DNA from: Alphaproteobacteria bacterium
GTDB taxonomy: Bacteria > Pseudomonadota > Alphaproteobacteria > Rs-D84 > SZUA-605
Assembly: GCA_031549385.1 (NCBI GenBank)
Contig: JAVBPW010000001.1
Location: 6,142-38,141, forward strand
DNA length: 32,000 nt
Direction of reading: 5' to 3'
Position numbers and translations under genes: made by a program. Under the pieces are notes generated by a model. The model saw only the letters and a list, made by a program, of their open reading frames with translations, did not search any database and was not told where the DNA came from. Every line of letters begins with the position of its first letter. The stretch's first letter is position 1. This document shows, one piece after another, positions 11,301 through 26,609 of this stretch.

Positions 11301-11585
11301 GATGATTATCCTTGGATGTTTGAAAATAATAGACCTGAACAAGAAGTAATTGTTAAAGGGAAAAATGGAACTCAAGTTTATAGAATCGATAATCTTATTA
11401 TTAATGAAGATGAAGTCATCATTATTGACTATAAAACTGATAGAAAAGCTTCACTTGAATTATTTGAACTATATAAAAAGCAATTGAAAAACTATAAGCT
11501 AGCAATTGGCGATATTTATAAAGATAGAGCCATAAAGACTTATATTCTATGGCTCCTAGACGCTTCCTTACAAGAAATTATTTAG
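8337..11585 (+). CDS. addA: Double-strand break repair helicase-nuclease AddA
   Basis: 1082 aa with UvrD-type Walker A ASAGTGKTKVL, helicase motif II LLDEAQDTS, TVHGAKGLE, LLYVALTRAK, and a C-terminal RecB-type nuclease motif IIDYKTD. The start overlaps the upstream stop (ATGAATAA). No addB is adjacent. Confidence 0.85.
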   Translation: MNKLATEIQNKASNPTISAWVDASAGTGKTKVLTDRILKILLYGGDISKILCITYTKNSANEMLNRLIETSKKWAMMNDEKLKCELGNILEDEYINDELILKARTLFAVVCENIESIKIKTIHSFCEEILKKFPVEAGINPHFKNIPENERKAFLKNVINEIFKQNDVQVLDQISYLASFINQDAFGDIQKDIISNANKFEELFKTDFKTIDNKLRKTLEIKETDLDKIKLDFIKNHIGLFNGFVNISSALSETAKKYGRELSEFLLLNDIDKIRNFNSVVSIFLTGDKTVRKTPKEDNFQNLANKVFEFYKVFVNINVYNQSKAVLIIAKKFLDQYKQEKEKQGLLDFDDLISKTLALLTKKDISSWVIYKMNGGISHILLDEAQDTSPYQWKIIDAISENFFETNPRNFAEFKSIFIVGDRKQSIYSFQGADVENFEKYFKYLEDKIDNSDYKFKKVDMNVSFRSSETVLNFVDEVFKKDEILKGVSLDKVKHINGKELNGRVELYPHIKLNEKVKKDYIEGHFDEKFYENNYLNLAKAIAIKIRNLLDSKIYLADQKRYLSEQDIIILVKSRNRIVSYLNKELKNLDIEFEGIDKFKLLDDMATEDLLACGKFAVFPFDDLNLAGLFKSPLIGGSEKELFDLCYGRGGESLWDRILNSSDVEIAKKRTKLQKIYEHRNDTPFEFYSFVLNKLDGKKLLLKRLSMAALDSINYFINTALEWNNKIVSDLSSFLDFIVNGDIEIKREGQGNKQNGVKILTVHGAKGLEGQYVFLADTCKVKSNKAEDKFIFDEELFFWFVNKSFVNEQIENSLAHQSEKDMEEYKRLLYVALTRAKRNLYIFGLEKCEKNSWYEILRDTFNSLDKKKIESVPEYLAEYYEEDAKILSVENIVEEVSEIIEEKIEKKKESNFNYPQEPEIETPVLKNDVELDKNEESIRIGNIIHKIMQNVSQIPEDIRLDWVSEKIENSDLNDNQKEDFNNSLKTILDDYPWMFENNRPEQEVIVKGKNGTQVYRIDNLIINEDEVIIIDYKTDRKASLELFELYKKQLKNYKLAIGDIYKDRAIKTYILWLLDASLQEII

Positions 11586-11787
11586 ATAGATTTTGTATTA
11601 ATTTTACTAAATTTCTTTGACCTTCAAGAAAATACAATTCCTCTTTAGTTGCTGATGATGGAAGAGTTTTATTTAAAGTTATCTGATTTAAATATTCTAA
11701 CACATTCTTTCCATTTATATTATTGAAAGTTAAAAAGAAACTTCTTTGTAATTGCTCTCTTTCTTGTTTTTCTCTGACGTTAAACAT
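11578..11787 (-). CDS. Small portal-linked phage protein (Bbp19-like pattern), function unknown
   Basis: The track start (11793) is GTG. The ATG at 11787 overlaps the portal stop (ATGTTTAA) and has GAAGGTG upstream. The pattern F.TFNN.NGKNVLEYL...EGQRNLV resembles the small proteins that accompany podovirus portal genes. Its stop region overlaps the addA stop convergently by 8 nt. Confidence 0.45.
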   Translation of the reverse strand: MFNVREKQEREQLQRSFFLTFNNINGKNVLEYLNQITLNKTLPSSATKEELYFLEGQRNLVKLIQNLSK

Positions 11788-13357
11788 TTGCACCTTCCAT
11801 TTGCTTTTGTGTTTTTTGTATCATCCATTCTTTATAATTTTCTAGATTTTCAGCTAAGACTTTATCATCTAAATTTATCAAGCCATCTATTAAATTTGCT
11901 GGCATTTTATGAACAAACTCTAAAACCTTGTTTTCATATTCTTCATCTTTTGTTAGTAAAAAACTTTTAGAAATATTCATCTTTTTAGTTATTGATTGAA
12001 GGATTTCTTCTTTGTCTATCATCTTTTCAAATGTTTGACCTAAGGCTGATACCATTTTTATCCAATCCAAAATATTCGATACATCATCATAGGACTTTAA
12101 CTGGCCTAGTTTTGATACATAATTTATCTGAATATCACTTTTAGAATATGGATCTTTAATCTCACCCCTTCTTTTCAATATTGAATATGCTCTTAAAATT
12201 AATGGATTTAATAACTCACTTTGTAATCTTCCATATGTTGCTCCAAGTACCTTCAACGAGATACTTGAACGTTGCAATACTTCTGTTGCTGACATATTAA
12301 AGTTTTGATTAAATGGCTGTAATTGTGTTGATAATAATGCAGATTTTATATTCTCTCTTATATCTTTTAAAATTAAGTCTGAAATATTAAAATCTGTTCC
12401 TACTTTCAACGGTGTTAGCCCACTTGACCCCATTGCTTTTGGTATTATTGCCCCTGGGGTTAGTTCTATATTTGCTGGATTTAGCACTCCATCATCGTCC
12501 GCTTGCCATACTCCGCTTACTGCTAAAGAAGCATTTTTTAATACTAATTCTACTATTTTATTTGCTGTTTTTATGTCAGGTAGCGCTTTCATTATTGGAG
12601 ATCTTCCATAAAAAACTGATGGAGATTTAGTAAAGCGGAAAATTATAAATGGATTTTGCTCGAATGTTCCTGATGCTAATACTTGATTGTCATTTTCTGT
12701 GAAAATAAAATATTTAAATTCATTGTTTTGCTTGTATACACATTCCACTATATTCAACTTAAAGTCTGAGTCATTCTTTTGCACATCTTCCATTTGCTTT
12801 GTCGGAATAAAATTTGAAAACTTTTCTTTTATTGCTGCTAATCCCATTTGACTTTTCTTATATATGGTTTCTGGATGGGTTGAATTGTTTTCATCTATAT
12901 AAATATCACGCATAGAAATTGCTTTGAAATTAAAGGCTGAATTTTGTCCTAATTGAGCTTCTTCAAATAATAAACATGCTGTTCCTATTACACATAAATC
13001 TATGTAGCATTGATGAATTGTTGAAAAGAAATTTGAGCGACCTAAATGAGCATATATCTTTTCTTGAGTTTCATGCAATGTGATTTCTGCTAATCTCTTT
13101 GATTTTCTATCTTTAGTTTCATAGTTTGAATGCAACTGAAACCATGATGAATAAGGTGGAGTCATTTCTGATAAAAGATGTGAAGCTAATTGGTCTACAC
13201 AATCTGATGCAGTTGAATCAAATAAATTATCTTTTCTTGCACATGATGCAAATACATTTTGAGAGGGAAATGTATAATTATAACATTCTTCCCAAAGAGA
13301 TTCTAAATCTCTTCTTTGCTCTTTTATTTTATAATATTTTTGTATTTTATTTTCCAT
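11780..13357 (-). CDS. Phage portal (head-to-tail connector) protein, T7 gp8-like
   Basis: 525 aa, against about 536 aa for T7 gp8. The N-terminus Y.IKEQRR....W.ECYNYTFPSQNVF....D.LFDSTASDCVDQLASHLLSEMTPP parallels T7 gp8 (YERLKNDR...CAQYTIPSLFP...GARGLNNLASKLMLALFP). An AAGGAG RBS lies 5 nt upstream. Confidence 0.85.
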   Translation of the reverse strand: MENKIQKYYKIKEQRRDLESLWEECYNYTFPSQNVFASCARKDNLFDSTASDCVDQLASHLLSEMTPPYSSWFQLHSNYETKDRKSKRLAEITLHETQEKIYAHLGRSNFFSTIHQCYIDLCVIGTACLLFEEAQLGQNSAFNFKAISMRDIYIDENNSTHPETIYKKSQMGLAAIKEKFSNFIPTKQMEDVQKNDSDFKLNIVECVYKQNNEFKYFIFTENDNQVLASGTFEQNPFIIFRFTKSPSVFYGRSPIMKALPDIKTANKIVELVLKNASLAVSGVWQADDDGVLNPANIELTPGAIIPKAMGSSGLTPLKVGTDFNISDLILKDIRENIKSALLSTQLQPFNQNFNMSATEVLQRSSISLKVLGATYGRLQSELLNPLILRAYSILKRRGEIKDPYSKSDIQINYVSKLGQLKSYDDVSNILDWIKMVSALGQTFEKMIDKEEILQSITKKMNISKSFLLTKDEEYENKVLEFVHKMPANLIDGLINLDDKVLAENLENYKEWMIQKTQKQMEGANV

Positions 13358-13390
13358 ATTTTCTCCTTACTGTTTTATAGGAAATTAATT

Positions 13391-13413
13391 TAGCCCTGAA
13401 TTAATCAGGGCTA
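13391..13413 (-). terminator. 9-bp hairpin between the ftsZ operon and portal (weak or partial terminator)
   Basis: TAGCCCTGA-attaa-TCAGGGCTA. On the minus strand it is followed by AAAUUAAUUUCC, a poor U-tract, so termination is probably leaky. Confidence 0.35.
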
Positions 13414-13437
13414 TTAAACGTTACAAATTCGTTAAAT

Positions 13438-13884
13438 TTATTGCTGTTGATACTTAATTAAATCTGAAATAGATTTATTTTCTTGTATATCACTTATCTT
13501 AATTCTCATTGGTTCACATTCATAACTTATCTTTGTATTTGTTATAAACTCAACTACTGGTGTTATTAATGTCATTGTTATTAAACATACTGTTATCATT
13601 ACTAAAGCACCTGCAAAATTAATTTGCTTACCACTTGCTAGCATATCAAATACCATTTTTAATATAACAAAAAATATCATTATATATGCTAACATTTTTA
13701 AAAAATCGATTAACTCTTTTACGTATTTTTGAAAACAACTGTTTGAAGTTACTACTAATGAATCTCCACTGATTACATTTTCATATCCAACAGATGTGAA
13801 ATAATTTTGCATCTCTGATAATGATACTGCAAATAAGTTACTGCATGCAAATATTATTAGAAAAATTACAAATATTTTATTCAT
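13438..13884 (-). CDS. Small membrane protein (signal/lipobox-like N-terminus plus two TM helices), function unknown
   Basis: 148 aa. The N-terminus FVIFLIIFAC resembles a lipobox, followed by two hydrophobic helices (MLAYIMIFFVILKMVF and AGALVMITVCLITMTLITPVV). The ATG overlaps the ftsZ stop (ATGAATAA), implying translational coupling. Confidence 0.5.
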   Translation of the reverse strand: MNKIFVIFLIIFACSNLFAVSLSEMQNYFTSVGYENVISGDSLVVTSNSCFQKYVKELIDFLKMLAYIMIFFVILKMVFDMLASGKQINFAGALVMITVCLITMTLITPVVEFITNTKISYECEPMRIKISDIQENKSISDLIKYQQQ

Positions 13885-15397
13885 CTTGTTCTTTTAAAAA
13901 GCTTTCAAAAGTATTTTCTTCTTCATTTAATGATGGCATGTCTTTGAATAAATCCATCAAATCATATGAAGCTGGTGTTTCTTTTTTAACTGGCTTTGGT
14001 TCTGGCCTTACTGGTCTTTCACCTTCTTCTTTAGCACCAAAGATATTTTTTAATTTACTTGAAAAAGATGCGTTTTTATCATCTGGCTTTGGTTCATTTG
14101 TTTGACCAATTGCCATTGATGAGATATCCAATGCTTGTGGGGTATCATCAAATTCTTCGATGATTACTTCATCCATTGTCATTGGAAATACTTCTTCAAT
14201 TTCTATTACTTCTTCTTGTTCTTCTTGCACTTCTTGTTCTTCTTCCAATGGAATAAATGTTTGTTCTTCATCTTCTTGAGTTGGTATCTCTTGAATTATT
14301 GTTGTTTCTGTGATTTCTATTATTCCATCTAATGGATCTAAGATTTCACCAGCTTCTTCTTGAACTGGTTTTGCTTCATCCAATATAGGTTTGATAAATT
14401 CATCAAAACTTTTATATTTGAAATCTGTATTTACTGAACCACTTAAACCTGTTGCTATTAATGTTAGGATTAATTTTCCATTTAAGCTTTTATCAAAGTT
14501 TGTTCCGAAAACAAAATTTTCTTGTGTCTTTAATTGATCCCTAACTTTTTCCATTATTCCTTTTACTTCACTTAATCTGATATCTGTACCACCAGAAATT
14601 TGAAGTAATACTTGTTTTGCTGAAACGGCACTTCCTTTGTCTATTAAATGATTTTCTAATACTTGTGAAACAGCATCTTCTACTCTGTTATCACCTGTTG
14701 TGATTGCAGAATTTACCATTATTTGACCACCATTATCTAAGATAGATTTGATGTCAGCAAAGTCTAAATTAATTTGACCTGTTGTATTTATTATGTCTGT
14801 TATTCCTTGTATACCATTTGCTATTTGCATATCTGCTGAACCAAATGCTTCTGATACTGGAATGTTATTATCAAATGCTGTGAAGAAATTTTCATTTGGT
14901 ATTATTACGTAACTTGATGTAGCTCCTGATAAATCATCCAGTGCGGAATTTGCTACTTTCTTTCTTTTTTCTCCTTCAAATGAGAATGGAAGAGTTACGA
15001 TTGATACGTTTAATACACCTGCTTGTGTTGCTGCATTTGTTAATATTGGAAGAGCTCCTGAACCTGTTCCTCCACCTAAACCGCCTACAAAAAATATTAA
15101 TGAAAAATCTTTAAAATAATCTTGAATTGCTGCAATATTTTCTATTGCACTTTGTTTTCCTATTTCTGGATTTCCACCTGTACCAAATCCTTTAGTCAAT
15201 TTTACACCAAGAGGAATCTTTGTTTCTGATAGTGAACTTTGTAAACTTTGAGAATCTGTGTTTAAGGCTACATATGTAACGCCTGATATTTTCTGCTTTA
15301 TTAGAGTGTTTAATATATTTATACCTGCACCACCTACACCTGCTATTAATATTTTTGGTGTAACATTATCTTCAAATTTAGCCCATGTATCTTGCAT
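13877..15397 (-). CDS. ftsZ: Cell division GTPase FtsZ
   Basis: GVGGAGINILN, GFGTGGNPEIG, GGLGGGTGSGALP (T4 loop), NLDFADI (T7 loop), a long acidic linker and a C-terminal FESFLKEQ resembling the conserved FtsZ tail peptide. A GGAGGG RBS is present. Confidence 0.9.
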   Translation of the reverse strand: MQDTWAKFEDNVTPKILIAGVGGAGINILNTLIKQKISGVTYVALNTDSQSLQSSLSETKIPLGVKLTKGFGTGGNPEIGKQSAIENIAAIQDYFKDFSLIFFVGGLGGGTGSGALPILTNAATQAGVLNVSIVTLPFSFEGEKRKKVANSALDDLSGATSSYVIIPNENFFTAFDNNIPVSEAFGSADMQIANGIQGITDIINTTGQINLDFADIKSILDNGGQIMVNSAITTGDNRVEDAVSQVLENHLIDKGSAVSAKQVLLQISGGTDIRLSEVKGIMEKVRDQLKTQENFVFGTNFDKSLNGKLILTLIATGLSGSVNTDFKYKSFDEFIKPILDEAKPVQEEAGEILDPLDGIIEITETTIIQEIPTQEDEEQTFIPLEEEQEVQEEQEEVIEIEEVFPMTMDEVIIEEFDDTPQALDISSMAIGQTNEPKPDDKNASFSSKLKNIFGAKEEGERPVRPEPKPVKKETPASYDLMDLFKDMPSLNEEENTFESFLKEQDE

Positions 15398-15481
15398 ATT
15401 TCCCTCCGAACTTAGTGTCCGATACTTTTTGTTTTTAAAGTATTTTCTTTAAAAATCCAGTTTTTTCCTTATTCGGTACAC

Positions 15482-15490
15482 ATTATAACA
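15482..15490 (-). promoter_or_regulatory. Candidate extended -10 promoter for ftsZ
   Basis: Minus strand reads TGtTATAAT, about 85 nt upstream of the ftsZ ATG. Confidence 0.35.
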
Positions 15491-15549
15491 TATTGTTTGT
15501 TTTTTTTATAGACTTTTTTATTTTTTTATATTACTATGCTTTAGTCATT

Positions 15550-15625
15550 GGCCAGGTAGCTCAGTTGGTAGAGCAAAGGACTGAAAATCCTTGTGTCGAC
15601 GGTTCGATTCCGCCCCTGGCCACCA
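15550..15625 (+). tRNA. tRNA-Phe (anticodon GAA), CCA encoded
   Basis: GGCCAGG-TA-GCTC-AGTTGGTA-GAGC-A-AAGGA-CTGAAAA-TCCTT-GTGTC-GACGG-TTCGATT-CCGCC-CCTGGCC-A-CCA. This is a clean cloverleaf with one A-C mismatch in the T stem (15599 with 15613). Confidence 0.95.
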
Positions 15626-15897
15626 CTTATTTTATTTTCAATAAAATCATTGTTGGAGGAGACGTTTCCTCACCTTCGGTTCGATGTCCTCGGCAAAATT
15701 GCCTGCGGGCTTCGCGTACGCATTTTAAATGCTACTTGTCGGGCCGCCCCTGGCCACTACTTATTTTATTTTCAATAAAATCATTGTTGGAGGAGACATT
15801 TCCTCACCTGCGGTTCGATGTCCTCGCAACTTTCGTTGCTTGCGGGCTTCGCGTACGCATTTTAAATGCTACTTGTCGGGCCGCCCCTGGCCACCAC
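15610..15897 (+). repeat. Tandem direct repeat: two units (15610-15743, 134 bp; 15744-15880, 137 bp) plus a terminal 17-mer, each starting with a copy of the tRNA-Phe 3' end
   Basis: CCGCCCCTGGCCAC(C/T)AC occurs at 15610, 15744 and 15881. The units are near-identical except for a swapped hairpin: GGCAaaatTGCC at 15692-15703 versus GCAACtttcGTTGC at 15826-15839. They are GC-rich relative to the surroundings. Confidence 0.9.
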
Positions 15898-15923
15898 AAA
15901 CTTGAAGTTTGACATTTTATTTT
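15897..15923 (+). terminator. Weak hairpin plus T-run ending the tRNA-repeat array
   Basis: CAAACT-tga-AGTTTG followed by ACATTTTATTTT. Confidence 0.4.
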
Positions 15924-15989
15924 AAAAAACTAAATAATTTTCCTAAATATCTAATTTTAGAATTGCTATTATTAGTTTATTTGGAAATT

Positions 15990-17165
15990 TTAATCTTCTA
16001 TGAATGGGTAGGATTTTACTGCTTCGGCTATCTTTTTTACTAATAATCTTTGATAGTCGTTTGTCTTTAATCGTTTCTCTTCTTCTCTGTTTGACATGTA
16101 TCCTAATTCAACTAATACTGATGGAATGTGAGACTTTAATACTGCAAATGGAGCGTATCTTTGATTAGTGTCTAATAATGATACACTTCTGTCCTTCTTA
16201 CATTTTTCGATTACTAACTTTGAAAAGATTATTGATTCCTCTTTTGTTTGTCGTAGTTTTAAATCACTTAACATACTTACTACTTTTTTATCATAATTTT
16301 TTGATAGTGATAAATCCATTAAGTCGGCTGCGTTTTCTCGTTCGGCTAGTCTTTGAGATTCTATGTCAGATGCTTTGTCTGATAATGTATATATAGATAA
16401 CCCCTTTGTATTTTCTTTTGGATGAGAGTCAGCATGAATTGATATAAATAAATCTGCCTTTTTCTTTCTTGCAAATTCACTTCTTTCAGCAAGCTGTAAG
16501 AAAGTATCGTTGCGACGAGTTAGATATACTTCATATCCCATGTTTTCTAATTCTCTTTCCAATAACTTTGCTGCTGATAAAGTTATTGTTTTTTCATAAG
16601 TTCCACCTTTTCCTATTGCTCCTGGATCTTTTCCACCATGACCTGCATCAACTACTATTATCTTCTTTGTATGCTTTTTCATTTTTTGATCTTGAGTTAT
16701 TATTGGAACGTTTGTAGTTTTTGGAATAACTTTTTCTTCGTCATCATCTTTATCTTTTGAACCTGATTTGCCTTTTTGAACAGTATCAAAAACTATACGA
16801 TAGTTTTTATTTGAACCTTGTGGATTTAATATAAAATGTTTTTCTATTTTTGCATCACCGTCTACATCAAGGACTACTCTGTTTATATTTGGTAATTTTC
16901 CATAACGAACATCTTTTACATAGTCTAACTTTGAACCTGAGCCATTTAACTTATAAGCTTTAGCTTGTTCTATATTTATTACTATGCGGTTATCCATATA
17001 TAAAAATGTATATTCTGGCTTGAAAGGAGTTTCTAATACAAATCTTACTCCACCCTCTGGACGTTTGCCTAATCTGTAGTCCATAGTCTCTGGTGCTCCA
17101 AATCCTTGCGAAAAGATTCCACATAAGAATAAAAAGAAAAATAATAAACCTTTTATTTTATTCAA
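15990..17165 (-). CDS. amiC: N-acetylmuramoyl-L-alanine amidase, AmiC-type (signal peptide, AMIN domain, amidase_3 domain)
   Basis: 391 aa. Signal peptide LLFFFLFLCGIFSQGFGA; AMIN-like N-domain (VRFVLE...RIVINI...RVVLDV); catalytic domain IIVVDAGHGGKDPGA...ADLFISIHADS...SVLVELGY. The start codon is TTG at 17165 and overlaps the stop of the upstream pilin-like gene. Confidence 0.85.
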   Translation of the reverse strand: MNKIKGLLFFFLFLCGIFSQGFGAPETMDYRLGKRPEGGVRFVLETPFKPEYTFLYMDNRIVINIEQAKAYKLNGSGSKLDYVKDVRYGKLPNINRVVLDVDGDAKIEKHFILNPQGSNKNYRIVFDTVQKGKSGSKDKDDDEEKVIPKTTNVPIITQDQKMKKHTKKIIVVDAGHGGKDPGAIGKGGTYEKTITLSAAKLLERELENMGYEVYLTRRNDTFLQLAERSEFARKKKADLFISIHADSHPKENTKGLSIYTLSDKASDIESQRLAERENAADLMDLSLSKNYDKKVVSMLSDLKLRQTKEESIIFSKLVIEKCKKDRSVSLLDTNQRYAPFAVLKSHIPSVLVELGYMSNREEEKRLKTNDYQRLLVKKIAEAVKSYPFIED

Positions 17166-17628
17166 ATTCTATATTCAGTATATTTACTGCCCCTTCTTGA
17201 CATTGTAAGTCTTCACTTGTTTCTGCATCTCTTCTTACTGCACTTCCGTTTAACCAAACTTCTTTTGCAGATTTCCATTCTGAAAGTCCATAGAATATAC
17301 AATCAGCTTGGGATAATTCTTCATAGGAAATTATAAAACCTTGACCACCTTCTGATGGACGAACTATAAATTCTTTTCCATATGCATTTCTGTTGTTTCT
17401 TAATGCTCCATATCTTTGTAAGTAAGATATAGTCAATAAACCGTAATCTGATTTTCCTTGGAATAATGTCTTTATGTTTTCTGATAAATCTTCAACTTCA
17501 TTTATTGTAGACATTCTTGTTAATTTTTCACGTGATCTTGTGTACATTGAAACAGCACCGATTGTTAATATTCCTACAATTGCGATAACGGCCAAAGTTT
17601 CCAACATTGTTCTTCCTGATTGTCTCAT
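17158..17628 (-). CDS. Type IV pilin-like (prepilin-type N-terminus) protein
   Basis: MRQSG/RTMLETLAVIAIVGILTIGAV has Gly at -1, Glu at +5 and a hydrophobic alpha1-N helix. Two C-terminal Cys (C..FY and LQC) are consistent with a D-region disulfide. The +1 residue is Arg instead of Phe/Met. An AAGGAG RBS is present. Confidence 0.7.
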   Translation of the reverse strand: MRQSGRTMLETLAVIAIVGILTIGAVSMYTRSREKLTRMSTINEVEDLSENIKTLFQGKSDYGLLTISYLQRYGALRNNRNAYGKEFIVRPSEGGQGFIISYEELSQADCIFYGLSEWKSAKEVWLNGSAVRRDAETSEDLQCQEGAVNILNIEFE

Positions 17629-17668
17629 TTTGTGCTCCTTGGTAAAATATCTTTGATTTTGTTAAAAG

Positions 17669-17677
17669 ATTATAGCA
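17669..17677 (-). promoter_or_regulatory. Candidate extended -10 promoter for the pilin-amiC pair
   Basis: Minus strand reads TGcTATAAT, about 40 nt upstream of the pilin ATG and immediately after the TerL stop. Confidence 0.4.
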
Positions 17678-17693
17678 TAAAAATTATTTTATT

Positions 17694-20054: not shown

Positions 20055-20544
20055 TTGTACCTCCGCTGATTATTGTAGTTGTGCTTTTTGTTGTCTTTGG
20101 CATTGCTGAACTTACTGTTGTTACTGTACTGCCTACTCCAGAAATTAGATTTCTTCTTTTTGACATTAAATTCTTTGATAATGTGTTATCTAAATCTCTT
20201 GTCAAATTTTTTGAACTTGCTTCATAGTCTTGTTGATTACTATATTGTCTTTTAGCAGATTCTTCTTTTATATTACTTAACACTGCTGATGAAGATTCTG
20301 AATCTATTTCAATTTGATTAGCTCCAAATCTTGCACTTTGTTCTGCTAATGTTCTTTTTAATAATGAATTTTCTGTTTCTTGTTGCTCCTTATAATTTCT
20401 GTCCAAAGCTTCTTTTTTAATCTCATAATCTTCCATTATTGTTTTCTTTTGTTTTTTATTTTCATCTGCATTTAAGGCTTGATCTATACCTTTAAATATT
20501 AAATCAAATCCTGTTGCTGCTACCGTTGCTGCTGCTGTTGCCAT
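20047..20544 (-). CDS. Hypothetical virion-associated protein (coiled-coil, Ser/Thr-rich tail)
   Basis: 165 aa with an AAGGAGG RBS. It occupies the position of the T7 gp13-16 internal proteins but is far smaller. I recognise no motif. Confidence 0.4.
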   Translation of the reverse strand: MATAAATVAATGFDLIFKGIDQALNADENKKQKKTIMEDYEIKKEALDRNYKEQQETENSLLKRTLAEQSARFGANQIEIDSESSSAVLSNIKEESAKRQYSNQQDYEASSKNLTRDLDNTLSKNLMSKRRNLISGVGSTVTTVSSAMPKTTKSTTTIISGGTNG

Positions 20545-20556
20545 TTAAAACCTCCT

Positions 20557-22446
20557 TTAAGATAGTGCTTTAATTTTTAGTGAAATACTTTGCATACAAA
20601 ATTTAAATGGTGCATCACTTTGTATTTTCCAAAGTGGAGTGTTTCCATTTGTTTTATATCCAAATGATGACATTACATAATTACCTGTGAATTCTGTTAA
20701 ACCTTTTCCATAACTACGTTGCTCCAGTTGTAATTTGTTTAATCCAAATCCTGTGTCTATTTCTAATATTGCTGATTCTTCTAATCTTATTGATAATTCT
20801 ATTAGTCTGTACTTTTTGTAACCACCGCCTGATAACTTAGTAAATGGAAATGGAACAATCGTATGTTTATATGGATAGCCTATACAATAACTTGAAACAG
20901 GTTCGTTTAAAATCATTGTACTTTCTTCTATTTTCTTTTTTGAATATATAAAATCATCAACTTTAATATAAATTTCTTCTCCTAAATATTCACTTAATTC
21001 ATAAATACCTGTTATACTTTGTTCTTTTGAATGTTCGTATTTTGCACAATCTAAATATAAATCGTCTTCAAATTTTTCCAGATAAAAGTTTTCATTTCTT
21101 TTAGTTATTACATAGGTATTATTATCTAATGTTGTTGAATATAAAAACTTCCCATATGTTTGATAGTTACTCCAAGATAAAACTTGATTCTGAGGAGATA
21201 CTGTTAATACTGCCATTTCTCCATTTGATAAAACTACATACAATTGTCTTTTAGACTTATTATAAGTCATATCAGTTGGATCTTTTATTAAATGTGAACA
21301 AAGTTGCGATAGATTGTTTGATGTATAATTTGCTACCACTTGTCCATATACAAATTCTCTGATTTCTTTTTTGTCTTTTGATACAAAAATTGTTGCTGAT
21401 TCTATTTGTAACACTGGTAAAAATCTCTCTGTTGGACTTCCTATTGCTGTTTGCTTCGATAAAGATACTGTTGATGGTGTTATCAAATTTGTTGGAACTA
21501 TCCATTCACCACTGTATGTTAAAATTTGTAAATGAAGGGCTGAAAATATTGTCTGAATTTCTTCCATACCTGAAGATAGGAGACAGAATTCTATTGCTTC
21601 ATCATCTAACCCTTGTCCGCAATCAAAGTTTCCATATGTAAAAGTTTTTGAAAACCATAACTTATTTGGCTGAGTTGGAGTTGCTCCAAAAACTAAACGA
21701 CCTTGATGAAAACATGAAGTTTTTGGATACCCTCTTGTATCAGAAAAAGCAGCCTCTTTGTATGAACCTTGAGCAATATTTTTAAATTGCTTTAAGACCT
21801 GAATGTTTGCTTTTACTAAAGAAATTATACTTATAATTTTAAAAGAACCTTCGTTAAATATAAATTCTTTATTAATCATGTCTGATGTAAAAAAATCTAC
21901 ATTAGATGTTATTGTTGTTGCCCCTGTTATTCCAGCCGGTGTAAATAAAACACTCTTTTTATCATCAAATTTATAATAAGGGTAAAGACTTGTTCCGTAT
22001 GTGTCTTGAGCGAACACAAAATTCTTAAACACAAAACCATAAGTTTTTTCATAGGTCAAAACTTTTGGATGGTGGTTTTGATGAGTGAAAATCATTTCTG
22101 ATAAATTCTGAGATGTTTGTATTTGATCGATTTCACTTTCTTTATATGGAGTTTCTAAAATATCAAATAACGCATCGTCTTTGTATAAATACATTAGACC
22201 TGGAAGTAATACTATTAGATAATTATCATTACTTTTTAATGTAAAACTGAATAATTTTCCCTTTTGTGGAAGTTTATGGACTAGTTTTAATCCGCCTCTT
22301 CTTTTTATTGCTCCACTCTCTGTTGTGTGAGCATTTTGTAAAACTGATACCCCGTTTGAATGTGCTGCTAAATCAGCACGAGATGTGTAACTTTGAGCAA
22401 GTTCTCCATTTAAGAAAGAGTTTTGTGTGTGTGTAAATATTGTCAT
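20557..22446 (-). CDS. Tail tubular protein B-like (T7 gp12-like)
   Basis: The track start (22452) is TTG. The ATG at 22446 lies 6 nt after AAGGAG. The N-terminus NSFLNGELAQ....RADL.....G...L.N......G.IKRRGG follows the pattern of the gp12 N-terminus (KNLKGGISQQPD..RYPDQ....NG........GLQKRPP). Its position after gp11-like also fits. Confidence 0.6.
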   Translation of the reverse strand: MTIFTHTQNSFLNGELAQSYTSRADLAAHSNGVSVLQNAHTTESGAIKRRGGLKLVHKLPQKGKLFSFTLKSNDNYLIVLLPGLMYLYKDDALFDILETPYKESEIDQIQTSQNLSEMIFTHQNHHPKVLTYEKTYGFVFKNFVFAQDTYGTSLYPYYKFDDKKSVLFTPAGITGATTITSNVDFFTSDMINKEFIFNEGSFKIISIISLVKANIQVLKQFKNIAQGSYKEAAFSDTRGYPKTSCFHQGRLVFGATPTQPNKLWFSKTFTYGNFDCGQGLDDEAIEFCLLSSGMEEIQTIFSALHLQILTYSGEWIVPTNLITPSTVSLSKQTAIGSPTERFLPVLQIESATIFVSKDKKEIREFVYGQVVANYTSNNLSQLCSHLIKDPTDMTYNKSKRQLYVVLSNGEMAVLTVSPQNQVLSWSNYQTYGKFLYSTTLDNNTYVITKRNENFYLEKFEDDLYLDCAKYEHSKEQSITGIYELSEYLGEEIYIKVDDFIYSKKKIEESTMILNEPVSSYCIGYPYKHTIVPFPFTKLSGGGYKKYRLIELSIRLEESAILEIDTGFGLNKLQLEQRSYGKGLTEFTGNYVMSSFGYKTNGNTPLWKIQSDAPFKFCMQSISLKIKALS

Positions 22447-22456
22447 TGCCAACTCC

Positions 22457-22858
22457 TTAATATAAAAATAGTGTTTGTGGTAAGTTTGTGTAATTGCTTC
22501 GAAGATCGAGATGTATAAATGTTTTTGCTATACCAACTGAAAAGCCTAAATTAAGTGCACACCTTATTAGCTTTGCATTTAAAATCCCGTTTTGTTTTGC
22601 TATATCAATTGCACAAGTTGCTAAATTTTGCTTTTCATCAAAAATGTGAAAACTGTTTTTTACTCCACCTATTTCTTGATTATAAGATAAACTTCTGCAA
22701 CATGAATTAACAATCATAGGATGTCCATAAAGCAATCTTAATTCTTTTAATTTTTCTGCAAAACTACAAGCTAGTATTCCGTCTTTTGATTTTTTACATT
22801 GAAGTTCCTTTATGGAAAAGAGAACTTTTCCATTGTCGTCTTTTATATCTTGTAACAT
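22457..22858 (-). CDS. Peptidase M15-family cell wall peptidase (endolysin-type)
   Basis: 133 aa. SCCRSLSYNQEIGGVKNSFH...CAIDI...FIHLDLR fits the M15A pattern (S.YRS...N...GG...S.H ... A.D ... H.D zinc ligands). Confidence 0.75.
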   Translation of the reverse strand: MLQDIKDDNGKVLFSIKELQCKKSKDGILACSFAEKLKELRLLYGHPMIVNSCCRSLSYNQEIGGVKNSFHIFDEKQNLATCAIDIAKQNGILNAKLIRCALNLGFSVGIAKTFIHLDLRSNYTNLPQTLFLY

Positions 22859-22859
22859 A

Positions 22860-23429
22860 TTAACCTCGGCAGTCTATTAATGAGAATTTAGTTATTTTTT
22901 CTGGGGTCTTTTGTTGAGCGTCTATTAGTTTTGCTAATCTTTCTTGGCTTATACAAACTTGGTTTAAGTAACTTGATTTTGCATGGTCTTCTGTTAATGG
23001 AAGACAAAATTCATAAGATAAAAAATCCACTAATAAATTTATGAAAAATGGAGGCATTTGACTTTCGTCAATATCCTGAATCACTTTTATTGTTACTATG
23101 TCTGAGTTTGCATAAAGTCGGTCTTTCATTATTTTATATGAAATGTCTGAAAAATTATCCCCTGCCCCACATGAAATTATCCTTAAAATATTTTTAGGTA
23201 ATAAATAGGTATATGAATAACCTTGAATTGCAGGTTCATCTAATGATGCTGGTTGAATTAAATTGCAAGCAAATGTCCATGGGTATGATGAAAGCAATTT
23301 TTGTTTTACTATTTTATAAAAAGATTTTGAAATTTTAGCTTCTGCTGTGTTTTGATTAAAATTTGATATTGTATTTGCACCTATTTTAAGCAATGCCATA
23401 GAGCAAATATCTATGTTTGTGTAATTCAT
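22860..23429 (-). CDS. Tail tubular protein A-like (T7 gp11-like)
   Basis: 189 aa, against 196 aa for T7 gp11. DICSMALLKIGANTISNFNQNTAEAKISKSFYKIVKQKLLSSYPWTFA parallels gp11 [46 protein letters not shown]. Confidence 0.7.
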   Translation of the reverse strand: MNYTNIDICSMALLKIGANTISNFNQNTAEAKISKSFYKIVKQKLLSSYPWTFACNLIQPASLDEPAIQGYSYTYLLPKNILRIISCGAGDNFSDISYKIMKDRLYANSDIVTIKVIQDIDESQMPPFFINLLVDFLSYEFCLPLTEDHAKSSYLNQVCISQERLAKLIDAQQKTPEKITKFSLIDCRG

Positions 23430-23452
23430 TAGAAATACTCCTTTTAAAGTTT

Positions 23453-23475
23453 AAAGGGGGCAAAAAGCCCCCTTT
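23453..23475 (-). terminator. Strong GC hairpin after the capsid and 76-aa genes (probable partial terminator)
   Basis: AAAGGGGGC-aaaaa-GCCCCCTTT, a 9-bp stem, is the most GC-rich hairpin inside the cluster. It sits between the 76-aa ORF and the gp11-like gene. Confidence 0.5.
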
Positions 23476-23477
23476 TA

Positions 23478-23708
23478 TTACATTGCTACTAATGTTACTG
23501 CTGTGTCAGTTACTGCTGAAACTGCTGCAATTACACTTTGATCACTTGCATTGATGAAAATAAAATCATTAGCATTAATTACTTTTGACATGTCTGCAAA
23601 ATATGTAGATGCCATTGTTACTGCTTTTGTATCTGTTGTTTTATAGTGCCACAATGTGAAGCCATTTGCATAGGCTAGTACGCTTAAATTGTTTGTTTTA
23701 AAAGCCAT
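23478..23708 (-). CDS. Small hypothetical phage protein downstream of the capsid gene
   Basis: 76 aa with an AAGGAG RBS and tight spacing after the capsid gene. I recognise no motif. Confidence 0.4.
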   Translation of the reverse strand: MAFKTNNLSVLAYANGFTLWHYKTTDTKAVTMASTYFADMSKVINANDFIFINASDQSVIAAVSAVTDTAVTLVAM

Positions 23709-23719
23709 AGTATTCTCCT

Positions 23720-24553
23720 TTATGCTACTATTGCTGCGTCATCTTTGCAGCTGATTTTTACTATTCCACTTTCGTCAATTACACATGAACCTTGGCTCAT
23801 TGAGTTTGATATGAAATGTGATTGGCGATCGCCTTGCCATGAAATGTCAGATTTTACTTCTGAACCTACAGCATGACCTATTGCTGTTTTATGATAAATA
23901 AAGCATTGGCGATTTCCTGAAATTAATGGAAGATTGTTGTGTAAAATCCAAATTACTCCCATCCATTTTCTTGCTTCACTTCCATTTATTAATGCATAGT
24001 TTTCACCACAATATTCTGATGAAGTGAATTCTTTAATGCTTAATAGTTCTGACCATTGATGAACACCTACTACACCAAATCTTTGACCGTCGTCTGGACA
24101 TGAAAGTTCATTCAATTTTTCAATTGCTTTCATAATCTTTTCTTTTGTTAGACCTTTTGTGTCCGCTGCTACTTCATTTGTTGCTTTTGAAAGTGCACTA
24201 ATGATTAATTCATCTGTTTTTCTTCCTAATGCATATGCTCCAGCTGAAGCTATTACTTTTCTTTCGTCTGTGTTTGTTTTTAATTCATCCATAGCATCGC
24301 ACCAATCGCCTGCATAAAAATCTTGCAAAACACATTCTATTGGTGTGTGTTGAATGTTCATTGTTGGAACTAACCCATGACGAGATTTTGTTGATGCTGT
24401 GCCTTTGCCTACTCTTTGGAATGTAGTTGAAGAACCTTTTACATCATTTTTTACTCGCACAGTGTTGCGTAGTTTTGTTCCGTATTGTTGATATTGCAAA
24501 TGTACATCTGCTTCAAATTGTTTGATAAATGCTTGATCTATTGTTAAAGACAT
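23720..24553 (-). CDS. Major capsid protein
   Basis: 277 aa, positioned after the scaffold gene. The N-terminal pattern F..QFEADVHLQYQQ.GTKLRNTVRVKN.V.GSSTTFQRVGKGTASTKSRHG is one I recognise from podovirus and prophage capsid proteins. An AAGGAG RBS is present. Confidence 0.7.
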   Translation of the reverse strand: MSLTIDQAFIKQFEADVHLQYQQYGTKLRNTVRVKNDVKGSSTTFQRVGKGTASTKSRHGLVPTMNIQHTPIECVLQDFYAGDWCDAMDELKTNTDERKVIASAGAYALGRKTDELIISALSKATNEVAADTKGLTKEKIMKAIEKLNELSCPDDGQRFGVVGVHQWSELLSIKEFTSSEYCGENYALINGSEARKWMGVIWILHNNLPLISGNRQCFIYHKTAIGHAVGSEVKSDISWQGDRQSHFISNSMSQGSCVIDESGIVKISCKDDAAIVA

Positions 24554-24642
24554 TCTTATTCTCCTTTAATTAATTATTTAATTGTCGACTTTATACCGGA
24601 GGGTGAGTCTTTATTTATTGTTATCCTTGCGGGCAATAGTTT

Positions 24643-25272
24643 TTATTTGTATAGTTTTTCAAATCCTTCTTTTACCTTTTGGCAAAATTCCGGATCATTT
24701 TCTTTCCAATATTTTGGATTATTCATTAGCTTCTTTAGTGAATCTAATGTTAATTGTTTTGATGGGGATGATGTTTCGTCTAAGATTTTAGGCTCTGATG
24801 AATTCAACATCTTATATAGTAATAATACTCCGTCATATGATGAAGCAAGAACTTCATATAAATCTTGAGATAGATTATTGTCTGCATATGTTTGAATTTG
24901 AGATGCTACTTTTTCCCAATTTTCTTGTCCACCAAAATAATTTTTTAAATTTTGTAATTGTGTTTGTTGTTTTAAATCAAATTCTGTTTCTTGTATCTTT
25001 GTATTTAAATTCTGATTCAAAATATCATGAACACATTTTGCTTGTGATTTTGTAAATTTATTTTCAAATAGTTTCTTACCTATAGCTTCATCTTGAAAAT
25101 CTAGTTCATATTCACTTGGGTCTTGAGGTAAATCTAAATTTATTTCTTCTTGATTTGATGTGCTTAGCTTTTTTTCTAAATCTTTATATGATTTCAATAA
25201 ATTTTTTGCGTTTAGTTGACCTGTTTCTTTATCCAAAAATTTTTCTGGTATCTTTATTTCTTGATCTGTCAT
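24643..25272 (-). CDS. Capsid scaffolding / assembly protein
   Basis: 209 aa, acidic and helical. The N-terminus IPEKFLDKETGQLNAKNLLKSYKDLEKKL is typical of phage scaffold proteins, and the gene sits immediately upstream of the capsid gene. Confidence 0.6.
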   Translation of the reverse strand: MTDQEIKIPEKFLDKETGQLNAKNLLKSYKDLEKKLSTSNQEEINLDLPQDPSEYELDFQDEAIGKKLFENKFTKSQAKCVHDILNQNLNTKIQETEFDLKQQTQLQNLKNYFGGQENWEKVASQIQTYADNNLSQDLYEVLASSYDGVLLLYKMLNSSEPKILDETSSPSKQLTLDSLKKLMNNPKYWKENDPEFCQKVKEGFEKLYK

Positions 25273-25280
25273 AATTGCTC

Positions 25281-25466
25281 CTATTTTAAATTTTCATCAA
25301 TAGATTTTCTTAAGAAAACTATCGAAAATAATGGGAAGATTGTGGAAAATAAATTAGCTAAATCTAAATCTCCTAATAAATATCCTGAGACTGCTGAAAT
25401 AATTCCTGTGATTGATACAAGGTATGTTTTTTTACCTTTTAACATTCCACCGTTTAATAAATTCAT
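25281..25466 (-). CDS. Holin-like small membrane protein (two TM segments)
   Basis: 61 aa with two hydrophobic stretches (YLVSITGIISAVSGYLLG and LFSTIFPLFSIVFL) and a charged C-terminus. It is adjacent to a cell wall hydrolase. Confidence 0.45.
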   Translation of the reverse strand: MNLLNGGMLKGKKTYLVSITGIISAVSGYLLGDLDLANLFSTIFPLFSIVFLRKSIDENLK

Positions 25467-25476
25467 TTTAATTCCT

Positions 25477-25938
25477 TTATATTTTGTAAAATAAATATTG
25501 TTTTATTTGAGTTTGGTAACCTTTTCCTTCTGCGAGTTCTGGAAATTCGTCTTCGTGATGGTAAAAAGTAGATCCAAAGGTTGTATCCTTTAAAATTCCT
25601 CGTAGCACTTTACCGGCTAGCCTTGAACATATTGCAAATTCAGGATTGGTTATTGTGGTACCTGGAAGTTTATTTTTTAATTTTTGATAAAAGTTTTCAT
25701 CTAAACAAATTGAGTCTATGGTTTTATTAGCATGATTTGAATTTTTAATTCTGTTTGCTATTGTGCATGCTATTGCTTCTTTTAAAATTAATGAAAGACC
25801 ATAAGATTCATGATATATGGTAAAGGCTAGTATAAATTGTTGGTGTTCTTTCTTTTGACAATCTTGAAGTAATATATCTTTATATTCTTTGGTTGCATTT
25901 GATTTTGTGAAATCACAAAATTTTAAACTATTTAACAT
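25477..25938 (-). CDS. SleB-like cell wall hydrolase
   Basis: 153 aa. AFTIYHESYGLS...EAIACTIANRIKN resembles the Hydrolase_2 (SleB) core motif (..Ea..e...g..AVa.vi.NR). Confidence 0.55.
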   Translation of the reverse strand: MLNSLKFCDFTKSNATKEYKDILLQDCQKKEHQQFILAFTIYHESYGLSLILKEAIACTIANRIKNSNHANKTIDSICLDENFYQKLKNKLPGTTITNPEFAICSRLAGKVLRGILKDTTFGSTFYHHEDEFPELAEGKGYQTQIKQYLFYKI

Positions 25939-26218
25939 TATACTTCCTTTTTTCTAATTTTTCTTCTATACGCAATAAATGATTTGTTAGACGAGTTTCA
26001 AGATCTCTAATGTAAGAAACCGAACAATAGGACATTGCTACTTCAAGCTTGTATGAAGATAAATCTTCGGCAAGCTTTATAACATTTGCCTTTGCTTCGT
26101 CTTTTAATTGATTTAAATCGTTTTGAGTTTGCCTTGAATGGGATCTTAGTAAAAAAAATAAGCCTGTTAGTGCAGGCAATTCTATTACTTGTATCCACCA
26201 AAAATAGCTAAATTCCAT
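25928..26218 (-). CDS. Phage membrane protein (N-terminal TM plus coiled coil), first gene of the cluster
   Basis: 96 aa. A TM helix (WWIQVIELPALTGLFFLL) is followed by a coiled-coil region. There is an 11-nt overlap with the hydrolase gene. A holin, antiholin or spanin-type role is possible. Confidence 0.4.
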   Translation of the reverse strand: MEFSYFWWIQVIELPALTGLFFLLRSHSRQTQNDLNQLKDEAKANVIKLAEDLSSYKLEVAMSYCSVSYIRDLETRLTNHLLRIEEKLEKRKYNVK

Positions 26219-26240
26219 TAGTACCCCCTGAGTTTAGATG

Positions 26241-26270
26241 AAAAAAGCCCAAAACCTTTCGATTTTGGGC
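26241..26270 (-). terminator. Intrinsic terminator between the cluster promoter and the first cluster gene
   Basis: Minus strand reads GCCCAAAA-ucgaaagg-UUUUGGGC followed by UUUUUU (26246-26241). The U-tract exists only in the minus-strand reading. It ends 22 nt before the ATG at 26218. Confidence 0.75.
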
Positions 26271-26279
26271 AAAAAAAGA

Positions 26280-26344
26280 GGAGACCGAAGTCTCCATAAA
26301 AGTGAGAACCGAAGTTCTCATAAAGTGAAGTCCGAAGACTTCAT
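26280..26344 (-). promoter_or_regulatory. Three tandem C(UUCG)G hairpins in the 5' leader of the cluster
   Basis: Minus strand reads AUGAAGUC-UUCG-GACUUCAC (26344-26325), AUGAGAAC-UUCG-GUUCUCAC (26321-26302) and GGAGAC-UUCG-GUCUCC (26295-26280). The stems differ but stay paired, while loop and flanks are conserved. Confidence 0.7.
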
Positions 26345-26381
26345 AATTTCTTAGGAAATAGTTTTCCCTTGAAGACTTATC

Positions 26382-26410
26382 AGTATATAGAACTTTTTCA
26401 TAAAAGTCAA
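26382..26410 (-). promoter_or_regulatory. Sigma-70-type promoter facing the phage-like cluster
   Basis: Minus strand reads TTGACT (26410-26405), 17 nt, then TATACT (26387-26382). Confidence 0.55.
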
Positions 26411-26581
26411 CTACAAATTTGAAATTTTATACATTGTTTTTTAATTTACAACAAAATACTCTCTAAATACAATCTCTTAAATTTGTATAATTTTTTTCAA
26501 AAAGTGGACTAATTTTTCATTTTTAGACTAAATATTATAATATTTTGTAATTTTGCGATTCGTAAAGTTTTCATTATTTAC

Positions 26582-26609
26582 TTGCATTTTTGGTTTTGGA
26601 CTGTACTAT
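26582..26609 (+). promoter_or_regulatory. Candidate promoter for mlaC-tkt
   Basis: TTGCAT, 16 nt, then TACTAT, about 25 nt upstream of the GAGGAG RBS. An alternative extended -10 (TGTATAAT) lies at 26484-26491. Confidence 0.35.

Follow-up and report, generated by a model that had tools for sequence, protein, structure and literature searches.

Gene transfer agents (GTAs) represent domesticated and dispersed caudovirus gene sets that lack replication genes (PMC9662315; PMC12946183). In the reduced genomes of Rickettsiales and Holosporaceae, head genes of the RcGTA type are kept by purifying selection (PMC9254644), and transcription of the GTA cluster in Caulobacter is reported to be under anti-termination control (10.1101/2023.11.12.565669). 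The FpGTA of Faecalibacterium prausnitzii, dated 2026, has been called the first podovirus-like GTA-like element (PMC12946183). The locus described here lies in a window of 32,000 nucleotides, which is the whole stretch of DNA that was analyzed (alphaproteobacterial assembly GCA_031549385.1, contig JAVBPW010000001.1, positions 6,142 to 38,141; GTDB order Rs-D84). It comprises 15 phage-derived genes on the minus strand, at 11578-13357 and 17694-26218. We read it, at a probability of about 0.6, as the domesticated remnant of a temperate T7/pelagiphage-type podovirus that is kept by selection as a host-controlled, GTA-like system making short-tailed, DNA-filled particles. The unusual features of this domestication are a split large terminase (TerL) and a terminator-laden leader.

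A domesticated GTA-like locus had been proposed in an earlier sequence-only reading of the window. Conserved synteny and selection support the proposal, with the GTA function itself as an interpretation. All of the head, tail, and lysis gene calls in T7 order hold, as judged from the list of open reading frames (ORFs) together with profile searches of the window proteins (Pfam, PHROGs) and, for TerL, a sequence comparison with the PDB. In the order of transcription, the genes of the element and the spacer between the terminase genes are:

25928-26218, minus: transmembrane (TM) and coiled-coil protein, 96 aa, first gene of the operon (phrog_29007, 6e-21)
25477-25938, minus: SleB-type cell-wall hydrolase (PF07486, 26.4 bits at a cut-off of 27; phrog_938 endolysin, 4e-9)
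25281-25466, minus: holin-like protein, 61 aa, with two hydrophobic segments judged by eye and no family match
24643-25272, minus: scaffolding protein, directly before the capsid gene (phrog_1018, weak, E = 0.007)
23720-24553, minus: major capsid protein (PF19821, 9e-73; phrog_3437)
23478-23708, minus: conserved virion-module protein, 76 aa (phrog_18004, 1e-11)
22860-23429, minus: gp11-like tail tubular protein A, the adaptor (phrog_394, 9e-35)
22457-22858, minus: M15 peptidase, a peptidoglycan hydrolase, between the gp11-like and gp12-like genes (PF08291, 6e-11)
20557-22452, minus: gp12-like tail tubular protein B, the nozzle (phrog_376, 2e-91)
20047-20544, minus: low-complexity protein, 165 aa, in place of the T7 internal proteins, with no family match
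19392-20054, minus: short fibre, 220 aa, with a gp17-type adaptor domain at its N-terminus and about 100 further aa (phrog_1640, 1.5e-12, residues 4-102)
18788-19420, minus: N-terminal terminase part TerL-N, 210 aa (phrog_38 positions 266-459; T7-family TerL structures)
18552-18787, minus: noncoding spacer between the terminase genes, with a promoter-like site at 18766-18738 and the ribosome-binding site AAGGAA
17694-18551, minus: C-terminal terminase part TerL-C, 285 aa (PF22530, 1.7e-8; phrog_38 positions 473-714)
11780-13357, minus: portal of the T7 gp8 type (PF12236, 4e-99; phrog_332, 7e-92)
11578-11793, minus: Bbp19-like small protein, after the portal (PF25181, 6.6e-7)

The main operon runs from 26218 to 18788 on the minus strand (7.4 kb, intergenic gaps of -29 to +89 nt). 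The phage-derived coding sequence amounts to about 10.1 kb, so that the small total noted earlier stands and its figure of about 10.3 kb is slightly lowered; with the cellular genes included, the element spans 14.8 kb. AGGAG-type ribosome-binding sites precede most of the genes, as the earlier reading had observed. The two weaker calls are backed by orthologues, those of the scaffold matching PF05396 (T7 capsid assembly protein) and those of the fibre matching PF03906 (Phage_T7_tail) weakly. The 76-aa ORF stands in the same position in Pelagibacter phage Hodr, and the pairing of the Bbp19-like gene directly after the portal recurs in this phage and in 66 loci. The gp12-like protein probably starts at an ATG 6 nt downstream of the listed TTG.

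Profile searches of the 32-kb window detected no integrase, repressor, polymerase, small terminase (TerS), or T7 core protein, in line with the earlier finding that integrase, replication, regulatory, and large core genes are absent. Replication, integration, and excision genes are likewise absent from the DNA of about 80 related loci that was scanned. No window ORF matches the gp14/gp15/gp16 ejection proteins or a single-subunit RNA polymerase, and the 165-aa ORF alone occupies the position of the former. Neither terminal direct repeats nor att repeats are found at the ends of the element, and no receptor-binding or killing domain is recognizable in the fibre stub.

Relatives were collected in a scan of one genome per species, in which 573 of 600 pattern matches encode a capsid relative, which corresponds to at least 573 stretches. 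The capsid has about 3000 database homologues, many of them on contigs of 0.2-1 Mb; the best 120 are 59-100% identical (nearly all 63-71%), the 100% entry being the window's own sequence. Among homologues that lie on chromosomes, more than 100 are 63-80% identical to the window capsid. The best 80 among the matches listed were compared in detail using tblastn with the window proteins. These are metagenome-assembled genomes (MAGs) that represent uncultured Alphaproteobacteria of the gut. Their sources are the rumen and the guts of humans, chickens, horses, and termites, and they bear the labels "Candidatus Enterousia," "Alphaproteobacteria bacterium," or "Rickettsiales bacterium." Enterousia, a member of the order Rs-D84, has genomes below 1 Mb that lack most biosynthesis and are not rich in pseudogenes; coding sequence makes up 81-94% across three reduced-genome lineages, for which pseudogene accumulation is not reported, and a partner-dependent lifestyle has been proposed for Rs-D84 (PMC12306168). 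Phage genes are not mentioned in the paper describing these genomes (PMC12306168).

At least 80 species-level genomes carry this gene set in intact form and with its synteny conserved. Essentially all orthologous ORFs are uninterrupted, and an internal stop occurs in 4 of about 900 matched segments; of the frameshifted or absent orthologues that the sequence-only reading had named as evidence against domestication, these few stops are all that was found. The gp11-like and gp12-like genes are detected in 85 of 85 loci each, the 76-aa ORF in 82, and the SleB-like and holin-like genes in 66 each, and a positional counterpart of the 165-aa ORF (o115) is present in 79. In about 64 Enterousia-type species the element occupies one chromosomal site, downstream of f140-lplA. 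The other flank of this site is less conserved, with UPF0102 in some species and a tRNA methyltransferase gene in one (L003).

Ratios of nonsynonymous to synonymous substitution rates (dN/dS) were estimated for 11 genes as pairwise Nei-Gojobori medians over pairs with 0.1 < dS < 1.5. The values are 0.10 for capsid and portal, 0.14 for TerL-N, 0.16 for the 76-aa ORF, 0.17 for the fibre, 0.20 for gp12, 0.22 for gp11 and holin, 0.23 for TerL-C, 0.24 for the scaffold, and 0.35 for SleB. By the same method, the cellular genes dnaB and lplA yield 0.09 and 0.20. Every gene of the element is well below 1 and comparable to these two, which answers the check on selection proposed earlier. Divergence within Enterousia is lower for the capsid than for DnaB (mean p-distance 0.15 versus 0.22). 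The distances of capsid, portal, gp12, TerL-N, and TerL-C correlate with those of dnaB over 60 loci (Pearson 0.66-0.82, Mantel p ≤ 0.001).

The likeness in composition between the element and its flanks, which had been judged by eye, is confirmed in numbers (G+C of 0.296 in the element and 0.311 in the rest of the window). Across the 80 loci, the G+C of the element equals that of its flanks over a range of about 0.28-0.57 (r = 0.96, mean difference -0.001, sd 0.015). Given the fixed site, the G+C that tracks the flanks, the dnaB-correlated distances, and the monophyly of the split-TerL loci described below, the element is, on these sequence comparisons, inherited vertically with the chromosome and under purifying selection. 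That the locus is a decaying prophage is very unlikely, and so is current mobility.

TerL had been described as the only broken ORF of the locus. The two ORFs are confirmed, but they are a conserved two-gene arrangement and not a blemish; the reading as an interrupted gene is rejected, as all catalytic motifs are kept. TerL-N aligns with residues 46-211 to structures of the T7 gp19 family (8dgc/4bij, 1.5e-25). It retains Walker A (FRNSGKS), Walker B (DIIICDDCE), and the coupling motif III (GTPHT) and ends about 12 residues past the latter. TerL-C contains the rest of the ATPase domain and the RNase H-like nuclease, collinear with fused TerLs, and retains the acidic nuclease motifs WDPS, ETNG, and DDxxDA; a sequence search of the PDB returned no match for it. 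The split point was located by aligning the TerL halves from ten divergent lineages with the fused TerLs of sister elements. In all ten lineages TerL-N ends after "GTPHT..TIY" and TerL-C starts at "PFL.G[FY]..L.IP," which places the break at the same homologous position in a variable linker of about 12 residues. By this alignment, the split lies inside the ATPase domain, between the core and the presumed lid. The segment after the break is taken to be the lid by its likeness to other TerL structures.

A separate TerL-N ORF of 197-229 aa is found in 80 species and a separate TerL-C ORF in 72, whereas the sister elements harbor a single TerL ORF of 497-533 aa. The distance between the two genes varies from 236 nt in the window to 3.4 kb including dnaB in Enterousia; in a further relative (L010) ftsZ and the portal gene lie in between, and in some loci the two are not neighbors. 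No sign of an intron was seen between the halves, and the spacer holds no Rfam family. In an Rfam scan of 11000-27000, a tRNA-Phe and one subthreshold small RNA match were the only results. The split-TerL loci are monophyletic in a neighbor-joining capsid tree (bootstrap 90), and the complementary clade reaches 100 with capsid, gp11, and gp12 combined. Because the same break point recurs across lineages and the split-TerL loci form one clade, the split is best described as a single old event, both products of which have been kept since. A search of representative proteins with TerL-N mostly yielded fused proteins of about 500 aa with 50-60% identity. In the literature on split terminases, intein-containing TerL and general reviews were all that turned up. 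Separate ATPase and nuclease TerL genes may be annotated in some actinobacteriophages.

The second unusual feature precedes the first gene of the operon and consists of two parts:

26382-26410, minus: sigma-70-type promoter-like site TTGACT-17-TATACT (promoter scan)
26247-26345, minus: leader in which a unit of about 23 nt stands three times in tandem, each copy a UUCG-loop hairpin, and a fourth hairpin

The third hairpin (26295-26280) is followed by U7 and the fourth, with 10 bp (26270-26247), by U6 and then by the ribosome-binding site. Both look like intrinsic terminators placed before the first start codon, and they are assigned to the leader because the neighboring mlaC is divergent. The arrangement is conserved. 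Among the 77 relatives with enough upstream sequence, 72 have TTGAC-N17-20-TAnnnT upstream of the first gene, in many cases together with an extended -10 box; the -35 box is at least 90% conserved, and about 25 nt of the initial transcript show conservation too. Between promoter and first gene, each of these 72 relatives carries one to three terminator-like hairpins, and compensatory changes are seen in the first stem, where GC has become AU in 11 of 34 sequences. Because a conserved strong promoter followed by one to four intrinsic terminators precedes the genes, the leader architecture implies an operon that would be controlled by antitermination. The subthreshold Rfam match mentioned above, to the "Betaproteobacteria toxic sRNA" at 26240-26286 (30 bits against a gathering score of 50), is probably the last leader terminator hairpin itself.

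The single regulated leader of the sequence-only reading applies to the 26218-18788 operon and does not extend to TerL-C or to portal/Bbp19, which sit outside it. TerL-C has a promoter-like site and a ribosome-binding site of its own. The window portal may be cotranscribed with the cell-division operon, because no promoter-like site precedes it. ftsZ lies on the same strand upstream of the portal both in the window (13877-15397) and in L010 (16470-19621). In Enterousia loci, a 334-aa XRE-type helix-turn-helix (HTH) protein, with about 80% identity between species and a dN/dS of 0.11, is a candidate regulator of the element.

From these parts, the following working can be proposed. The strong, constitutive-type promoter at 26410-26382 would fire into the leader of about 160 nt with its tandem intrinsic terminators, and the 7.4-kb operon would be read only when an antitermination factor or condition overrides them; a lambdoid late operon and the Caulobacter GTA cluster follow the same logic. 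Portal, scaffold, and capsid protein would then form a T7-type procapsid that needs no protease. DNA would be pumped into it by TerL-N as the ATPase core and TerL-C as lid and nuclease, the two associating noncovalently and reassembling as a working motor. Because the locus has no small terminase, packaging would start without sequence specificity, and the heads would be filled with chromosomal DNA. Hints at such packaging are indirect: the lack of a TerS at the locus and the 14.8-kb span of an element that has cellular genes inside. The gp11-like and gp12-like proteins and the short fibre would make up the tail. The presence of holin-like and hydrolase genes suggests release by lysis of the producer, in which the holin-like protein, the SleB-type hydrolase, and the M15 peptidase would act; alternatively, the M15 peptidase may help the tail to penetrate. 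Because ejection proteins of gp15/gp16 size are missing, the DNA would, as with RcGTA, be delivered to the periplasm of a sister cell only, where the cell's own uptake machinery and recombination would take over. Since capsid, portal, and both terminase parts are conserved, heads filled with DNA would be the product under selection.

The closest isolated phage is Pelagibacter phage EXVC031P Hodr (OQ414635), whose capsid is 46% identical, and the best phage-like metagenomic contigs reach about 60%. A near-identical complete phage, which would have marked the locus as a recent fragment, was not among the matches. Related entries in IMG/VR fall into two sets. The first consists of about 50 of these chromosomal loci that were excised as "proviruses" of about 10 kb. 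Many of the entries L086-L130 are about 10 kb long and begin exactly at the capsid gene, and a 5-kb GenBank record from human faeces (MT838907.1, "Bacteriophage sp.") has a capsid 62% identical to that of the window; these entries and the record are probably misassigned bacterial DNA.

The second set is a sister group with capsids 58-64% identical and a G+C of 0.35-0.73. It includes compact elements of 11-20 kb (L131, L133, L153, L155, L157, L158, and L163). The sister elements have a fused TerL, a TerS-like ORF (phrog_31793), and two conserved small ORFs, and a divergent CI-like repressor (HTH and S24 peptidase) occurs in addition in L131, L133, and L157. In L131, PF11351 ("GTA_holin_3TM") is found as well. 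Some sister contigs hold core-sized ORFs and long fibres; in the compact DNA examined, neither a polymerase nor an integrase was detected. The 165-aa window ORF is weakly similar to the 141-aa ORF after gp12 in L133 (E = 8e-4). The TerS-like ORF, the CI-like repressor, the two small ORFs, and the three-TM holin are without homologues both in the window and in Rs-D84-type loci. The compact elements could be minimal temperate phages or further SOS-inducible particle systems. A likely history is that a temperate podovirus of the sister type was fixed in an ancestor and was later rearranged along with the chromosome. After fixation, the repressor, the early genes, TerS, the core proteins, and most of the fibre likely disappeared, and the TerL was split.

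The arrangement of the genes differs between lineages. In Enterousia, SleB, holin, scaffold, capsid, the 76-aa ORF (o76), gp11, gp12, a small ORF, the fibre (in some), and TerL-N are followed by three opposite-strand genes (a 225-aa ORF, the XRE-type HTH gene, and dnaB) and then by TerL-C, portal, Bbp19, and a TM ORF. The opposite-strand trio lies at 14387-17722 in L003 and in the same place between the terminase genes in about 76 loci. Its dnaB is cellular (NF006606, 611 bits against a cut-off of 540; below the phage_DnaB cut-off), and its 225-aa ORF has no family match. Cellular genes thus lie inside the element in both types of locus, ftsZ in the window and dnaB in Enterousia. Deeper-branching relatives order the genes otherwise: L001 and L166 are window-like, L010 has the order TerL-N, ftsZ, portal, TerL-C, and in L007 and L057 the portal directly follows TerL-N.

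The lysis and cell-wall genes vary too. The 96-aa TM/coiled-coil protein is possibly a lysis accessory, and its homologues in relatives adjoin the SleB-like gene or come after TerL. Its homology to the 86-aa TM/coiled-coil ORF after Bbp19 in Enterousia was considered and dropped, as the two share no BLASTP similarity and are alike in architecture alone. The M15 peptidase is absent from Enterousia loci (tblastn). That it is unique to the window is ruled out by the closest relative, L168 (capsid 80%), in which it lies between gp11 and gp12 (4900-5301). In L166 (capsid 71%), a GH108 lysozyme with a peptidoglycan-binding domain lies between o76 and gp11 (11212-11874). The varied wall hydrolases among the tail genes may reflect selection for a virion-associated wall-degrading activity.

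The placement of the window element between core genes is borne out by its housekeeping flanks, which include dnaJ, thyA, addA, mlaC, and transketolase. The convergent 8-nt overlap with addA that had been pointed out follows from the ends of addA (11585) and of the Bbp19-like ORF (11578). The 4.3-kb interval between TerL-C and portal (13438-17628) is filled with cellular genes outside the particle set:

17158-17628, minus: type IV pilin-like ORF with the leader motif G|xxxxE
15990-17165, minus: amiC (profile searches)
15550-15625, plus: tRNA-Phe (Rfam)
13877-15397, minus: ftsZ (TIGR00065, 297.8 bits, above the cut-off)
13438-13884, minus: TM ORF, between ftsZ and portal

A pilin-like gene immediately follows TerL-C in several lineages, namely in the window, L001 (17294-18220), L166 (19489-19953), and L113 (about 10859), and in L166 it is followed by amiC as in the window. 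It may be a conserved cellular neighbor or be related to DNA uptake. The last 16 nt of the tRNA-Phe (CCGCCCCTGGCCACCA) recur twice more (window 15610-15897). Each copy of this 3′-end closes a tandem unit of about 135 nt, and the two units are 96-97% identical; they have no counterpart in Rfam, and their folding is no better than that of shuffled sequence. Past integrations at the tRNA may have left them behind, though no integrase is nearby.

Several points weigh against a working GTA-like system. Conservation and purifying selection show a function, not that this function is gene transfer. The particles are predicted from the genes, and direct sequence support covers only leader control, procapsid assembly, and DNA pumping among the proposed steps. 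The terminase is cut inside its ATPase domain. No small terminase, receptor-binding domain, or ejection protein is encoded at the locus, and the system is incomplete or has parts elsewhere in the genome. A Q-, N-, or GafYZ-like antiterminator is absent from the window and the related loci scanned, and it could be encoded elsewhere in the genome; the 80-nt gap between the ftsZ-linked ORF and the portal (13358-13437) holds no clear promoter or upstream terminator. The dN/dS values are approximate, as dS is near saturation (median 1.0-1.4); if saturation leads to an underestimate of dS, the true ratios are lower still, and none is near 1. The codivergence marker dnaB lies inside the locus, so that linkage alone could produce part of the correlation.

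Of the alternatives, a particle that is domesticated for a use other than transfer is considered unlikely. In a PBSX-like manner, DNA would be packaged incidentally, and competitors would be killed or perforated. The genes for tail, lysis, and peptidoglycan hydrolysis are conserved, the hydrolases recruited beside the tail genes differ between lineages (M15, GH108), profile searches of the window revealed no ejection proteins, and PBSX of Bacillus subtilis is cited for packaging DNA while acting as a tailocin (PMC12946183). A weapon would, however, leave unexplained why capsid, portal, and both terminase halves are the most constrained parts (dN/dS 0.10-0.23), which is unexpected if filled heads are irrelevant, and why the fibre is a short stub without a recognizable killing or receptor domain. 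We know of no podovirus-type killing particle. It is more improbable that the particle was exapted for a partner organism, to which it would deliver DNA or protein, or for another symbiotic function. Such a use would suit Rs-D84, with its genomes below 1 Mb, little biosynthesis, and proposed partner dependence (PMC12306168), and it has been raised for RcGTA-type heads in endosymbionts (PMC9254644). It is pure speculation, though, profile searches found no eukaryote-like or effector domains in the locus, and the conserved lysis cassette suits release by producer lysis, as in GTAs.

That the element is still mobile, as a minimal temperate phage or a helper-dependent satellite spreading horizontally, is highly improbable. 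There are indeed sister elements, 11-20 kb long, that carry a CI-like repressor and a fused TerL, and IMG/VR catalogues many of these loci as proviruses. Yet about 64 species share one fixed site, the element encloses cellular dnaB or ftsZ, its parts are scattered differently between lineages, its G+C is identical to that of the flanks from 0.28 to 0.57, and no integrase, att repeats, replication genes, or TerS were found at the locus. Hardly credible at all is a functionless cryptic prophage remnant that has not yet eroded. The two-piece TerL, the separate portal, and the absence of replication and lysogeny genes from the locus would be expected of it, but intact ORFs in at least 80 species, dN/dS values of 0.10-0.35 like those of cellular genes, a TerL split at one homologous site with all motifs kept, and a conserved promoter/terminator leader would not. 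The hosts are moreover densely coding (81-94%) with genomes below 1 Mb and no reported pseudogene accumulation (PMC12306168).

If the GTA-like reading is true, the locus represents a further independent origin of GTAs, from a podovirus lineage, within Alphaproteobacteria. To our knowledge, this class is thought to have only the RcGTA and Bartonella GTA types. The hosts are among the animal-gut bacteria with the smallest genomes, in which each retained gene must pay for itself. Because a 10-kb set is kept in such tiny genomes and its capsid evolves more slowly than DnaB, a strongly selected function is to be expected, and one possible function is recombination that offsets genome decay. A bolder version is held only tentatively: an order-level gut group with genomes below 1 Mb may spend about 1% of the genome on an independently domesticated T7-like GTA family with a two-piece motor and an antitermination switch, as the main route of recombination in partner-dependent bacteria. 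The terminase, cut after its coupling motif and with both halves long maintained, is a natural experiment on the communication between ATPase core, lid, and nuclease. Virome catalogues count these chromosomal loci as viruses, which inflates provirus numbers in rumen and gut data.

Among known systems, T7 shares with the window the gp8-type portal, the gp11/gp12 tail tube, the gp17-type fibre adaptor, and the gp19-type TerL; the RNA and DNA polymerases, large core proteins, and full fibre of T7-like phages are absent from the window. Phage Hodr has the same virion module in the order TerL, portal, Bbp19-like, scaffold, capsid, small ORF, gp11-like, gp12-like. It differs as a 34-kb phage with ORFs of 783 and 1247 aa after the gp12-like gene and many further unannotated genes. 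The compact sister elements (L131, L133, L153, L157, and others) share the structural genes, the small ORF after gp12, and the TM/coiled-coil and SleB lysis pair. Their fused TerL, TerS-like ORF, and CI-like repressor (L131, L133, L157) are all absent from Rs-D84-type loci. Phage-inducible chromosomal islands (PICIs), including capsid-forming ones, differ from the window element, which lacks an integrase, replication genes, and terminal direct repeats and has its own tail genes. The leader resembles the lambdoid late operon (PR′-tR′, Q), in which a strong promoter is closely followed by one or more intrinsic terminators and then by a long structural and lysis operon, with the difference that no Q-family gene was found in the window or the related loci scanned.

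No earlier description of this lineage's element was found in the literature on GTAs in combination with podovirus, T7-like, Enterousia, or Rs-D84. The earlier expectation that a T7-like podoviral GTA would be new has to be narrowed, as the podovirus-like FpGTA is a precedent (PMC12946183), although an unrelated one in Firmicutes whose proteins are not among the matches of the window proteins. FpGTA resembles the window element in its gut host, its operon of about 10 kb with TerL, portal, scaffold, capsid, and short-tail proteins, its lack of replication genes, and its near-ubiquity in the host genus (PMC12946183). It differs in that its TerL is unsplit and a TerS candidate is present, and experiments have shown its particles and their DNA of 8.4-8.9 kb (PMC12946183), whereas the window element is known from its genes.

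The RcGTA type of Rhodobacter, Caulobacter, Rickettsiales, and Holosporaceae is likewise a structural, packaging, and lysis set without replication or integration genes, which is inherited vertically in Alphaproteobacteria under purifying selection, has dispersible parts, and is kept in reduced genomes (PMC9662315; PMC9254644). RcGTA is siphovirus-like, with an HK97-type capsid, a prohead protease, a tail tube, and a megatron, and none of these families is matched among the window proteins. The window element instead has a gp8-type portal (PF12236), a PF19821 capsid, a gp11/gp12-like tail, no protease, and a split T7-type terminase. Because its ancestor differs from that of RcGTA, its domestication is, as far as gene families tell, independent of the RcGTA type.

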